DNA from: Pristiophorus japonicus
Taxonomy: Eukaryota
NCBI RefSeq assembly: GCF_044704955.1
Contig: NC_091999.1
Location: 9,982,001 to 10,046,000, forward strand
Length of the DNA stretch: 64,000 nt
Direction: 5' to 3'
In this document: piece by piece, positions 8,987 through 57,950 of the stretch
Numbering within the stretch: position 1 is the first letter of the stretch
Layout of the letters: each line of letters begins with the position of its first letter
Position numbers and translations under genes: made by a program
Notes under the pieces: model-generated
The model's input: only the letters and a program-made list of their open reading frames with translations
Told to the model about the DNA's origin: nothing
The model's database searches: none

Positions 8987-9025
8987 AGTTTATGTACAGG
9001 TCCAGCCCAGCTCCGTGTCTCTGTG
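8987..9025 (-). other. 23-RSS
   Basis: CACAGAG-23 bp-ACATAAACT on minus strand directly after the V coding end. Confidence 0.9.
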
Positions 9026-9329
9026 GGTCTCAGTGCGCAGTAATACACCGCGGAGTCTGTCAGTTGTGTCTCAGACACAATCAGCGGGACTGCTCGACTC
9101 AAATCATTGAGCTTCGCTGAAAAACGGTCCCCTGGAAATCTCTCCTTTTGCTCGCTGTATTTGCTTCTCTGCAGCAGATATTCTATGGATCCGCCGGGAA
9201 ACTGCCGATACCAGAATAGGTTAGGCCCGGTGTTTGTAGCTGTATAATTACAGTGCAACTGAACATCGTCTCCTTCACTTACTGTGGTTGCATCCGGTGT
9301 CTGTGAAACGGAGTCCCCTCGACAATGTC
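9026..9329 (-). CDS. TCR alpha/delta V exon, family B (open frame)
   Basis: TAG acceptor then HCRGDSVSQTP...LHCNY...LFWYRQ...DSAVYYCALRP; canonical Cys/Trp/Cys present. Confidence 0.93.
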
Positions 9330-9417
9330 CTACAAGAGGCCAGAGTGATATTAAATTAAACAGTGTCACTTTACTGTGTCTGTCACCCAGAATCAACCCG
9401 TCTCCCCCAACACTTAT

Positions 9418-9454
9418 CTTTGAAGTAACCCTGGGCAGTTAAACAGTAATACAT
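9418..9454 (-). pseudogene. Probable native leader exon of the family-B V with dead splice donor
   Basis: ATG + 37 nt (MYYCLTAQGYFK, phase 1) followed by ATAAGT instead of GTAAGT, 88 nt upstream of the V exon; only weakly hydrophobic. Confidence 0.5.
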
Positions 9455-9850
9455 TTCCCCACAACTGCAACGGGAAGGTGCGGGGAACGACTGAATAAAA
9501 CTTCCTTTAATGAACCTTCAGCGGGATCAGTTCCTCACCTTCACCTCTTGTGATGTGAAGGTAAAACTCCAAACGGCCTGTGGCTTTAAGACCTGTCTCT
9601 GTCAAAGTCCGTCATTGGTACCGGCGGGCCTGGCGATTCAGTCTGTCATTCATTTGAACTCAACCGCTTTCATTCACTGGGAGATTTTAGCAAGTTTCCC
9701 CAAGCAGTGTTCAGTGTTGAGTCAAGGTGCATCCTGATGGTCTTCACTTCAGATCAATCTGTTGATATTGTTGTTTTCAGGGTAGTGACCGATTAATTAT
9801 AATGTATGATGCATATGTGCAACACAGTGTTGTACAACTTGTGAACTTAC

Positions 9851-9902
9851 CAGTTAAAAGAGCTGCAACTGTGATGCACAAATAAAAAGTAACATCCAAC
9901 AT
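9851..9902 (-). CDS. Intact leader exon of family F with no family-F V exon downstream
   Basis: MLDVTFYLCITVAALLT-G|GTAAGT; homologous to leader MLGVTLYSAVTAAALIT-G at 42352-42403. Confidence 0.85.
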
Positions 9903-10029
9903 GTTTGATGGCGGATTTCAACAGAACGGGTTGAACCTGAAAATGTTTCTCGTCACGATTGGGAAGCTGCGGATTAAAAACCGGCCTCTTTGCTGATTGG
10001 ATAGTTCTTGACAGAAACAGCAGGTGATA

Positions 10030-10250
10030 TACAATCAACTCACATGTCCTGTGTTCTCAAATTCATCCAATCAGTTAACACTTCCCTTGTTTGCCATTTC
10101 AGCCAATCAGACTTCAGTGCCTTTTAACCCAATTCGTCCAATCACATTATAGCCCTTTGTTCTCCAAGTCAACCAATCTTCTCACTGTGCGTTGTCCTCC
10201 AATGCATCCAATCAGCTCACAGATCGTTTGTTCTGCAATTCACGCCATCA
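10030..10250. promoter_or_regulatory. ~35-bp tandem array of CCAAT boxes upstream of family-F leader
   Basis: CCAAT at 10067, 10103, 10138, 10173, 10208 (spacing 36,35,35,35). Confidence 0.7.
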
Positions 10251-10662
10251 GAGCGGGCAGCAAGAAAAGGACTGAAACGATTTTCGCAACAGAGAACTAT
10301 CTGGGGATTAAACCCACCGTTGGACCTTTAACAGGGGATTAAACACAATGCTGGCCCTTTAACAGCGGATTAAACCCAATATTAATCCTTTAACAGGGTC
10401 AGTATATGCGGTGGAGGCAGTGAAGGGCTATAGTTAACGTTGTTCCTTTATCAGTGCCAGAGACTCCCTTTAAAAGAGCTGCTCTCTGACTATTAGAAAC
10501 AGCTGATATAAACGTGATATTGCATAGAATTTCACAGAGCGTACAGCAGAGAAATTGGTAATTAGGCCAAATTAGTCTTTATATTTTGGTTTATGTTCCA
10601 TTATCATTTCACAATCCAGGTCACAGTTCTGATTCAGTGAGAGGAGATGAGAGTCTTTTGCT

Positions 10663-10701
10663 GGTTTTTGTATGGTCTGACTGCGCCCCTGTAACAGTGT
10701 T
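10663..10701 (-). other. 23-RSS with mutated heptamer
   Basis: AACACTG-23-ACAAAAACC; first C of the CAC lost. Confidence 0.85.
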
Positions 10702-11139
10702 GGGCGCAGCGCACAGTAATAGACGGCAGAGTCAGGGACAAGAGCTCCGGAGACATTTAAAGGAACCGATTTCTTGTCTAGGTCCAAATCAGCAGAGATC
10801 CGGTCTGGGAGACCTGGAGACTGATTCCCTTTCCTCTTGCTGTATCTTTTCAGTAAATATCTCGGAGCTTCTCCGGGATACTGGATATACCAGAAGAGGT
10901 AGGGAAAGTTATCGGAAGTGGAGTAACTGCAGTTCAGTATTAAGGTCTGTCCCTCCTGAACTGTTAATTCTGATGGATCCTGGGACACTGAATCTTCGCC
11001 ATTCGTTCCTGTTACAAAATACAGAACGCGCAAAAGTCTGAGAGTGAATTTGAAAACATGAAACACACACTGACCATTTAAACATAGACTCACCGGGCAG
11101 CACGACCATTATTATCAATAAGGAGTATAGGGAATACAT
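10702..11139 (-). CDS. TCR alpha/delta V segment, family C (leader 11094-11139, V exon 10702-11008); open frame, defective heptamer
   Basis: MYSLYSLLIIMVVLP-G|GTGAGT...CAG|TNGEDSVSQDP...LNCSY...LFWYIQ...DSAVYYCALRP. Confidence 0.93.
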
Positions 11140-12140: not shown

Positions 12141-13135
12141 CAATGATTGATATCTTGAAGAGGATATTGATATGTTCAGCTGTCAATATTTTGAAATGAA
12201 AAAGGAACAGACTCGATGCAAACTATTCCAGAATTGGATTCGGTAGTTCTCAGCAATGTGCCAAAACTTTTAACAACCAGTCAGACAATTTCTGAGGATT
12301 ATATGACAAGCTGCACCCTCTCATTCCTGAGTCACAGGTTGTGTCATTGTCATATCTTGCTTCGCTTTCTGGACACAATCAGACCAACAGCGTTCCCTCG
12401 GTGTGATCTACTTGCTGTCTTCTTTAACTGATGAGTATTGGTCCCTGATCGGATAAAAACATAAATTTCACATTGATTTGGGCAGAAAATCGTCCACTGT
12501 TTTCAGATGGAATGGTGTCTCAATTGCCTAAACAGGTGCAGTCTAGAATGTAGGGGAAGTAAAGCGAAACAGTTAGATGTATCAGTAGAGGCTCCCAGTA
12601 CAGGAGCTGCTCACTGACCATTAGATCTGCCCACTGCTGATGTAAAGGTTATTATAGACAGCCAGCGGGTCCTGGGGCATTTGAACACAAAGATACGGTA
12701 AATTATACAAACGCCACCTGTTATATGAATGAAATTGGGAATGAATGACAAGTTTCAGCAGAATGCGAGAATGCAAGCAACGGTTCGATAAGTGAACAAC
12801 TCGAGTCTCTTCGCCGAAAGCGAGCTGAAGGTAAGCATCGACATTGGAAGGAGCACGTGGCAACCCAAGCACACCGACCTCCCGTTCCTCCAACCACCGT
12901 CTGCTCCACCTGTGACAGAGACTGTTGGTCCCGCATTGGTCTCTTCAGTCACCTGAGAACTCATTTTTAGCGCAGAAGCAAGTCATCCTTGACTCCGAGG
13001 GATTGCAAAGAGACAAAGAAGATTCGAGGATTTCAGCCGCTGTTCCTTGTTTGACAGTGCAGCCGGGCAGACATCTGTATTTCTGCTCTGACAGAGGTGT
13101 TCACGCACTGTAGAGTTAAAGACTGAGTGAGTATC

Positions 13136-25045: not shown

Positions 25046-25725
25046 ATGAAGCTGGACTTCACTTTAGTGATTATCTCCCGGGATTTCTTACTCTCTCCTC
25101 CCTGTGGGTGTGGTCACAATCCGTCTGTGAGAAATATTTTACATCTTATATGTATTTTTTTAGTGTTTATGTCTTATTATTTTATGTTATGCTATATTGT
25201 TTTTCATTAGGTCGTATTATATTATGTTGTATTATTTTGTATTATGTTATATTATGTTATATTCTATTATCTTACATTATAACATTATATTATATAGATT
25301 GTATTAATTACATGATATGATTTTATATATTATATTATATTTACTTCTGATATGATATATCATATCATATTATATTATTTTACATCATGTTAATATCTAC
25401 ACAACCCTCTTAGGTGTCACCGGCAATGAAGATGTATCACAGTTTCCCAAGTCAGTGGTTCTAACCGATGGAGACAATGCATCATTGATCTGCATCACCA
25501 CAGTCGCAGGGCCGATCCTGCAATGGTACAGACAATACCCGAAGCGAACCGTGCAGCACCTGGCAACTGGTACCAGTGATCAGAGCAGGATCACGGCTCA
25601 ATTCAGTTCATCAGAGAAGTGCAGTGCTCTGAATGTTAGTGATGCTTGAGTGACGGACGCCACCACCTATTTCTGTGTTGTGAAGACACACTGCAGCAAA
25701 GATCAACAGAGACCATACAAAAACC
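25046..25725 (+). pseudogene. V pseudogene, family E (leader 25046-25103, V exon 25414-25686, RSS 25687-25725)
   Basis: EDVSQFPK...LICIT...LQWYRQ...SDA*VTDATTYFCVVK; single TGA; CACACTG-23-ACAAAAACC; AT-rich (TTATA)n intron. Confidence 0.92.
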
Positions 25726-42351: not shown

Positions 42352-42868
42352 ATGCTGGGTGTGACTTTATACTCAGCCGTCACAGCTGCAGCTCTCATAA
42401 CTGGTAAAATTTAAAGGTACACAATCTTCCTCTTCCAGATGTCGCTGACTACCTTTTAATTGTGTTTTATCACTATTTGCAATGTATTCCGTCACATGAT
42501 GATTTAGTTATAATTAAATTATGAAAGCATTTTAACATTCTGTATTTATACATGTCCGCAGGTGTTAGTGGTGCAGACTCCATCTCACAGCGGCCGGTTA
42601 CAGCGATCCAGTTTGAAGGAGACTCGGTGACAATTAATTACAGCTTTTCTACCACTGCTGGTTCGTATTCCTTGCAACTGTACCGTCAGGACCGGGACGA
42701 AGGGCCCCAAATCTTAATCTCCAGTCCTTCCTATGGGGATGTTGTCAGGGCAGTGGACACCGGGGCTCGATTTTCTGCATCTCTCGACAGTTCAAAAAGG
42801 GAGGGGAACTTCACCATCGGCGGACTGTGGCTGACTGACAGTGCGGTGTATTACTGCGCGCTGAGAGA
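42352..42868 (+). CDS. TCR alpha/delta V segment, family F, intact; lacks first Cys and conserved Trp (leader 42352-42403, V exon 42562-42868)
   Basis: MLGVTLYSAVTAAALIT-G|GTAAAA...CAG|VSGADSISQ..VTINYSF..SLQLYRQ..DSAVYYCALR. Confidence 0.93.
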
Positions 42869-55085: not shown

Positions 55086-55576
55086 TCTGCAATTCTCGAT
55101 CAGACAATCTTAACACATGTCCACAGCTCTCCTGAATGTGTAGTCTCCTTTTTTGTGTACAGTTCCGTTCATCCGGTAAGGAAAGGGTTAATCAGAACTT
55201 CTTGCAAGTAGTTGACTCCTTCGTGCTGTACAGTTTGAAAAGCTCTATTCATCCTGCAAGGGAACGGTTCATCACACTAACCCGAAGGATATTAATGTTC
55301 TACTGCTACTGATTTCTGTTCATATTGTAATTACTTTCTCCCATATAATAGGTGGCTTTTGTCGGATTTGTGTTCAAATCCCTCAGTACTGGCAGGCCTT
55401 CCATATCCCGCTTTCTATTGGCTATGGCTAGTTCAACTAGTAAGTGAGCAATTATTTTAATGGGAGTCGCCGACACTGATACAAGAAGAACATTAACTAT
55501 TTCGCTTCACTGCCTCTACCTCACCTGTTAAAGGGCCGACATTGGGTTTAATTCCCGTCCAGTTCTCTGTTGTGAG

Positions 55577-57110
55577 AACATATAAGAACATAAGAACATA
55601 AGAATTAGGAACAGGAGTAGGCCATCTAGCCCCTCGAGCCTGCTCCGCATTCAACAGAATCATGGCTGATCTGGCCGTGGACTCAGCTCCACTTACCCGC
55701 ACGGTCCCCATAACCCTTAATTCCCTTGTTGGTTAAAAATCTATCCATCTGTGATTTGAATACATTGAATGCGCTAGCCTCAACTGCTTCCTTGGGCAGA
55801 AAATTCCACAGATTCACAACCCTCTGGGAGAAGAAATTCCTTCTCAATCGGTTTTAAATTGGCTCCCCAGTATTTGGAGGCTGTGACACTAGTTCTAGTC
55901 TCCCCGACCAGTGGAAACAACCTCTCTGCCTCTATCTTGTCTATCCCTTTCGTTATTTCAAATGTTTCTATAAGATCACCCCTCATTCTTCTGAACTCCA
56001 ACGAGTAAAGACCCAGTCTACTCAATCTGTCATCAAAAGGTAACCCCCTCATCTCCAGAATCAGCCTAGTGAATCGTCTCTGTACCCCCTCAAACCTAAT
56101 ATATCCTTCCTTAAGTAAGGTGATCAAAACTGCACGCAGTACTCCAAGTGCAGCCTCACCAATACCCTGTACAGTTGCAGCAGGAACTCCCTGGTTTTGT
56201 ACTCCATCCCTCTCGCAATGAAGGCCAACATTCCATTCGCCTTCCTGATTAACTGCTCCACCTGCAAACTAACGTTTTGGGATTGATGCACAACTACCCC
56301 CAGGTCCCTCTGCACCGCAGCATGTTGTAATTTTTCCCCATTCAAATAATATTCCCTTTTACTTTTTTTTTCCAAGGTGGAGGAACTCACATTTTCCGAC
56401 ATTGTATTCCATCTGCCAAACCTTAGCCCATTCGCTTAACCTATCTAAATCTCTTTGCAGCCTCTCTGTTTCTTCTACACAACCCGCTTTCCCACTAATC
56501 TTTGTGTCATCTACAAATTTTGTTACACTACACTCTGTCCCCTCTTCCAGGTCATCTATGTATATTGTAAACGGTTGTGGTCCCAGCACCGATCCCTGTG
56601 GCACACCACTAACCACCGATTTCCAACCCGAAAAGGACCCATTTATCCCGCCTCTCTGCTTTCTCTTAGCCAGCCAATTCTTGATCCATGCTAATACATT
56701 TCCTTTGACTCCGCGTACCTTTATCTTCTGCAGTAACCTTTTGTGTGGCACTTTGAATGCCTTTTGGAAATCTAAATACACCACATCCATCGGTACATCC
56801 CTATCCACCATGCTCGTTATATTCTCAAAGAATTCCAGTAAATTAGTTAAACATGATTTCCCCTTCATGAATCCATGTTGCGTCTGCTTGATTGCACTAT
56901 TCCTATCTAGATGTCCCGCTACTTCTTCCTTAATGATAGCTTCAAGCATTTTCCCCACTACAGATGTTAAACTAACCGGCCTATAGTTACCTGCCTTTTG
57001 TCTGCCCCCTTTTTTTAAACATAGGCGATCCTTTAGCTGCTTTCCAATCCGATTGTACCTCCCCAGAGTCCAGAGAGTTTTGGTAGATTACAACGACTGC
57101 ACTTGCTATA
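55577..57110 (-). mobile_element. CR1-type LINE specific to right arm of duplication
   Basis: RT ORFs 55780-56958; (AACATAAG)n tail; empty site at ~29175-29200 and ~42085-42115. Confidence 0.92.
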
Positions 57111-57393
57111 ACAATTTCACTCCATTTAGCACTGCTCGCTGCGATGTACTGAATTGGAAAACAGAGGAACTGTGAACCGATTGATCAAGTGGAGAACAAA
57201 GGAGCTGTAAACTGATTCAATGAATTGCAGAAAAAAGGACCTGTGATCTGATTCGATACCACCTGCTGACACTGTCAGGAATGAACCAATCGGCAAAGAC
57301 ACCGGATATTAATCAATATCCTCCCAACTCTTGACCAAAACAAGTTCAAGTTCAACCCGTTCTGTTCCAATCCCCAATCAACTCTCTGTAAAT

Positions 57394-57950
57394 ATGTTGG
57401 GTGTAACATTTTGATCAATCGTCACAGCTGCAGCTCTCTTAACTGGTAAAGTTTACAAGTTACACGATCTTCTTCTTCCAGGTGTCATTGAAATACTTTA
57501 AACTTTGTTTTCTATCTATTTGCAATGTATTCCGTCATGTAACGATTTAGTTACAACAAAGTGATGACAAAAGGTTGAAGTTCTGTATTTCTCAATTTCT
57601 GAAGGTGTTAGTGGTGCAGACTCCATCTCACAGGGGCTGGTTACAGCGACGCAGTCAAAAGGGGATGCGGTGACAATTAATTACAGCTATTCGGCCCACC
57701 GATCATTCGCAATCCTTACAGCTGTACCAGAAGGACCGTGACAAAAGACCCAGAATTCTAATCTACATCTCTTCGTAGGGGATGTTTTCAGAGCAGAGGG
57801 CCTGGTTGCTCGATTTTGCACATCTCTCGCCACTTGGCAACATGCGGGGAATTTCACCATCGGCGACTTGCGGCTGTCTGACAGCACGGTGTATTACTGT
57901 GGGTGGAAAATGACAGTGACCATAACCAAAGGGAGTCTTGCACAAAACCG
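57394..57950 (+). pseudogene. V pseudogene, family F
   Basis: Leader with TGA; VSGADSISQ..VTINYSYS.., frameshifts; GACAGTG(57912-57918)-23-ACAAAACCG. Confidence 0.87.

Follow-up and report, generated by a model that had tools for sequence, protein, structure and literature searches.

The V gene at 9902-8987 of the window (the whole 64,000-nt stretch of Pristiophorus japonicus DNA analysed here) is almost certainly an ordinary, intact TCR alpha/delta V segment that carries the standard leader of its own family, family B. Sequence comparison indicates that the promoter and leader of this family very probably differ in ancestry from its V exon and are of the type found in a second family, F (alphaV10-like). 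The best explanation overall, which we consider probable, is a swap in the founder of family B, in which the promoter and leader came from family F and a leader-like exon inside the present leader intron is the fossil of the leader that was replaced. The parts of the gene and its upstream neighbour are as follows.

8987 to 9025, minus strand: RSS with a 23-nt spacer
9026 to 9329, minus strand: V exon, TCR alpha/delta, open, V-set domain, nurse shark alphaV1/alphaV2-like
9330 to 9850, minus strand: leader intron, 521 nt, ending in TTGTAG at 9330
9412 to 9417, minus strand: dead inner donor, ATAAGT
9418 to 9454, minus strand: inner leader-like exon with ATG, 37 nt, phase 1, likely a vestigial leader
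9521 to 9829, minus strand: intron segment with matches only within the family, candidate remnant of an old promoter
9851 to 9902, minus strand: outer leader exon, 52 nt, phase 1, donor GTAAGT, the family standard
9903 to 10500, minus strand: upstream/promoter region common to family F genes
10303 to 10396, no strand assigned: 31-nt tandem repeat, 2.3-2.5 copies, within the upstream region
10663 to 11139, minus strand: upstream neighbour, an alphaV3-like V gene that shares the duplicated cassette and has a leader of its own with an 85-nt intron

The outer leader exon (9902-9851) read MLDVTFYLCITVAALLT and was followed directly by GTAAGT. It was hydrophobic by computed hydropathy, and its in-silico splice to the V exon was in frame and free of stops; splicing across the 521-nt intron is predicted. 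The open V exon encoded both Cys and the Trp, and the RSS at 9025-8987 consisted of CACAGAG, a 23-nt spacer and ACATAAACT, with one and two mismatches, respectively, to the consensus. The V exon was most similar to TCR V proteins of sharks (54-56% identity), and by eye it resembled the nurse shark alphaV1/alphaV2 rows (supplementary file 3 of PMC5931798). Units bearing CCAAT/ATTGG were repeated at ~10032-10252 inside the upstream region. A C-alpha-like exon lay ~411 kb downstream on the same contig and strand, as judged from one match (E 2.1e-7, 34% identity). A preliminary description of this DNA had reported the open V exon with its RSS, ATAAGT at the inner exon, the phase 1 outer leader with GTAAGT at a distance of 521 nt and an in-frame fusion of the two; we confirmed all of these coordinates and the fusion. 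For annotation, the leader of a family-B gene should be sought ~520 nt upstream of the V exon, and the gene is not leaderless.

The alphaV3-like neighbour was open with a good leader. Its heptamer at 10701-10695 (minus strand) was AACACTG, because of which it is likely unable to rearrange; the heptamer was CACACTG in five paralogous cassettes found by the same pattern. A lone block at 12531-12736 (minus strand), between two other V genes, was homologous to the distal F/B upstream region. The V genes at 25687 (plus strand) and 63280 (minus strand), which belong to one family, carried a 23-RSS plus a second nonamer-like motif at 12-nt spacing.

The genome of the same species was searched with the whole unit. 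At least 58 matches were obtained, a lower bound from 40 of 68 candidates scored. The best 30 loci comprised 29 collinear copies of promoter, leader, intron and V exon. The F-type promoter and leader were present in 29/29 of these copies and were 74-90% identical to those of the window copy among the matches listed. In most copies the unit was flanked, inside a duplicated cassette, by an alphaV3-like V gene upstream and an inverted V gene downstream. We examined 35 family units (29 long and 6 truncated), 16 of which qualified as intact, with an open V exon, an AG acceptor and a CAC heptamer; L021 (the same locus as L020) and L034 and L035 (upstream insertions) were left out of the intact-copy and inner-donor counts. 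The outer leader was intact in all 16 intact copies, its donor was 100% identical throughout, and the leader intron measured 487-546 nt. Mean identity among these copies was 88.0% for the outer leader, 88.6% for the V exon, 84-85% for the intron, 85.0% for the inner exon and 76.7% for the inner donor. The intron segment 9829-9521 gave 29 matches, every one at a family-B locus.

These results bear on the earlier proposal that the window gene had captured a leader and promoter which rescued its V exon after its own donor mutated. The inner donor is indeed dead in the window copy. However, the same layout occurred in 29 copies and is not limited to those with a dead inner leader, since the inner GT persists in three intact ones. 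The leader of a zebra shark orthologue is also of this type (see below). A recent rescue specific to this gene is therefore hardly credible. The window holds no close relative of this V exon, and the rest of family B lies elsewhere on the contig, which is why the arrangement appeared unique there. The idea of capture survives as one probable ancient swap that founded the family and falls as an event in a single gene.

Eight short copies near the C-proximal end (L031-L038), which had neither the outer promoter nor the leader, were considered as the ancestral form and rejected as truncated pseudogenes. Their acceptor was broken in 8/8, their upstream DNA was the 3' flank of alphaV4-like genes, which also occurs without any B sequence, and the six that were tested grouped with the full-length copy L027 (100/99). 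A tandem array of two-gene units was observed on C23 at ~9.79-9.89 Mb and 10.12 Mb (L031-L038, L102-L113), each unit being an alphaV4-like V gene followed by a 5'-truncated family-B pseudogene, joined near the equivalent of window position 9520. The alphaV4-like flanks also matched distant C23 sites and other contigs. Broken whole-unit copies were found as orphons 8-57 Mb from the main locus, on C23 at ~19.6, 37.3, 65.7 and 67.0 Mb (L022-L026), and on C645 (L012). At L039 (C23:11548452-11548892) the promoter was fused straight to the middle of the V exon, with the leader and intron deleted.

Upstream homology to the three family-F genes of the window ran from ~10500 to 9830. No F-type V exon followed the outer leader, where only two short generic V matches (11 and 2 bits) were found, in agreement with the earlier observation of an F-type leader and upstream region lacking an F V exon. 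Promoter and leader together were 71-79% identical to 27 of 28 F units among the matches listed (L084 and L101 were excluded from F counts, as the fetched stretch held no V exon), whereas the V exons of B and F shared 41.6-48.5% of nucleotides (15 codon-aligned pairs) and their V domains 33-38% of residues. In a tree of 49 V domains, whose deep branches are not starred, B grouped with chimaera Vs (94/93) and with carpet-shark and white-shark proteins (97/97), and F grouped with alphaV4-like Vs (83/85). Forcing B and F into one clade was rejected (p-AU 0.013), a result that long branches may influence. The claim that promoter and leader differ in ancestry from the V exon was borne out by these comparisons.

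When the 29 long copies were compared with a profile of 16 F units, the match broke off at model position 862-864 in 28 of them, ~20 nt beyond the start of the intron. The leader intron of F measured ~130-175 nt, and that of B is unusually long. This single end point of homology and the discordant ancestry would both be explained by one recombination before the family expanded. Among 348 candidates, none scored as a full-length homologue of family F, which is weak evidence.

Common descent of the two families without any swap would require that the F V domain diverged fast while the promoter stayed conserved. The F V domains are atypical, with no conserved Trp and often no first Cys, so that long-branch effects are possible, and the AU test is subject to the same effects. 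Against this, third positions of shared four-fold codons agreed in about half of cases between B and F and in 84-92% within B, the introns of B and F could not be aligned past 20 nt, and the non-coding promoter was much more similar than the coding V exon. We regard this account as quite improbable and retain the swap as the better reading of the ancestry.

The V domains of family F (window 42562-42868, plus strand, and L072-L096) had no conserved Trp in 12/12 of the open copies listed and no first Cys in 7/12. The same residues were missing, by eye, from the expressed nurse shark alphaV10 rows of the supplement (PMC5931798). F/alphaV10 is a non-canonical V domain that has been kept and amplified in two sharks. 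The upstream region of an F pseudogene at ~57394 was split by ~1.5 kb of other sequence, probably an insertion (window 55432-57461, plus strand).

The inner exon lay 88 nt from the acceptor, and the leader intron of the upstream neighbour is 85 nt long. A cassette of ATG and donor in phase at such a position was seen in 2.4% of 5000 resampled introns. The ancestral state of the inner donor, taken from outer branches, was CAG followed by GTAAGT. Three of the 16 intact copies had kept GTAAGT and the GT was altered in the other 13; the exon was intact (ATG, frame and GTAAGT) in two, L003 and L008. Across the 16 intact copies the +1 base of the donor required five changes, which ranks it in the top 5 of 509 intron sites (mean 1.0), and the +2 base required one further change. 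When 20 copies were used, the rank fell to the top 15 of 509, and these counts may be inflated by gene conversion or tree error. The inner donor looks to have been lost about six times independently. If used from the outer promoter, it would keep 433 nt of intron before the V exon, which makes selection against it plausible.

The earlier reading of the ATAAGT exon as a dead leader is likely given its phase, its 88-nt spacing, the resampling result and the altered GT in 13/16 copies, and the inner exon is probably a vestigial leader. Some divergent copies read more hydrophobic here, e.g. MYFSLSALIYFS. A chimaera model of a related V opens with a short MY-type leader, and its likeness to the inner exon was weak (z 2.2, 13/500, one of six comparisons). 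Neither the inner exon nor the segment 9829-9521 matched the leader or promoter of other V families in the window and nine loci, which counts against this reading. It is very improbable that family B has two working leaders, with the inner exon serving as a live alternative first exon from an intronic promoter in some copies. L003 and L008, with their complete inner exon, would fit such a role; the exon was lost in 14 of 16 intact copies, it diverged at the intron rate, and its best 8-residue hydropathy mean was low (-0.1 to 1.9, versus 1.65-3.4 for the outer leader).

The direction of the exchange was considered separately. The promoter and leader could be native to B, with F having taken them from B or gene conversion having homogenised both, and the inner exon would then be a chance site or an older relic. 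The promoter tree, which had a star-like base, gives no direction, and B was not nested in F. The alphaV4-like genes, the closest V relatives of F, bear a leader and promoter unrelated to those of F, and the likeness of the F model to alphaV4-like loci began only near the V exon. The zebra shark leader is closer to B than to F. The lack of nesting, the comparisons with alphaV4-like genes and the zebra shark leader are in favour of this alternative, which we nevertheless consider unlikely. Without a second event it accounts neither for an ATG and donor in phase at 88 nt from the acceptor nor for the long B intron. We take F as the probable source of promoter and leader because the inner exon has an ATG, the correct phase, an ancestral donor and an acceptor distance like that of the neighbour.

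The zebra shark protein XP_059497704 (P0095), a predicted RefSeq model of the same V clade, starts MLPSVPHLFITAVVALP. Its leader of 17+5 residues equals the family-B leaders in length and aligned to the family-B outer leaders without gaps (z 4.3, 0/500 shuffles); against F, inner and alphaV3-like leaders z was 1.8-2.1. The nurse shark leader primers scored 10-11/16 and 12-14/20 against the outer leader, no better than nearby chance sites, and with no significant nucleotide match they were unusable as nucleotide evidence. As the zebra shark orthologue has this leader, the swap is likely older than the divergence from carpet sharks.

On the favoured explanation, one ancient recombination or deletion in the family founder would have broken the F unit ~20 nt inside its leader intron and joined the F promoter and leader upstream of a B-type V exon. 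The old B promoter, its 37-nt leader and its 88-nt intron would have become the remainder of the new long intron, and the new unit would then have been amplified inside the three-gene cassette. The inner donor, now competing, would have been lost repeatedly after the swap. The order of events is thus likely the reverse of that first proposed, with the new leader arriving first and the inner donor being lost afterwards. The wider proposition is that a major shark TCR alpha V family arose by capture before the carpet-shark split, with a fossil leader in the intron and selection that destroyed its donor about six times, and that modular shuffling of promoter and leader is a route to new V families; we hold it at even weight for and against.

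The nurse shark alphaV1/alphaV2 genes (PMC5931798) and zebra shark XP_059497704 have the same V type as the window gene, by eye and by the tree (97/97), and the zebra shark protein also has the same leader type. The supplement rows for nurse shark alphaV1/alphaV2 start at the mature V, so that comparison covers the V only. Nurse shark alphaV10 corresponds by eye to family F in the supplement rows of the same article, in which the published alphaV10 leader primer reads YFFTTA (PMC5931798). The F/alphaV10 type of promoter and leader is that of the window gene, whereas its V exon belongs to another clade and its intron is short. Our literature search, from which subscription papers were largely absent, found no account of this shared leader in sharks, and the available part of PMC12227049 held nothing on it.

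If the swap is true, an antigen-receptor gene can combine a promoter-leader of one history with a V exon of another, and a single regulatory module can serve V families whose binding domains are unrelated. Germline transcription of alphaV1/2 and alphaV10 would then be predicted to be linked in timing or level. The copies of the family would also act as natural replicates in which a competing 5' splice site has been lost.

Leader borrowing is already on record for the mouse TRBV12-2 leader and the TRBV13-2 V exon, a case to which Chou et al. 1987 reportedly relates. According to the available part of a later report, 46,029 of 69,248 transcripts joined the TRBV12-2 leader to the TRBV13-2 exon (10.64898/2026.01.30.702900). 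The two systems are alike in that a V exon has the promoter and leader of another V family, with which the mouse exon is expressed. In mouse, as far as that part of the report goes, both genes are whole, and only a fraction of the transcripts show the borrowing, which occurs in RNA. In shark family B, by contrast, the leader stands without the V exon of its donor family, and the whole family carries the arrangement in germline DNA.
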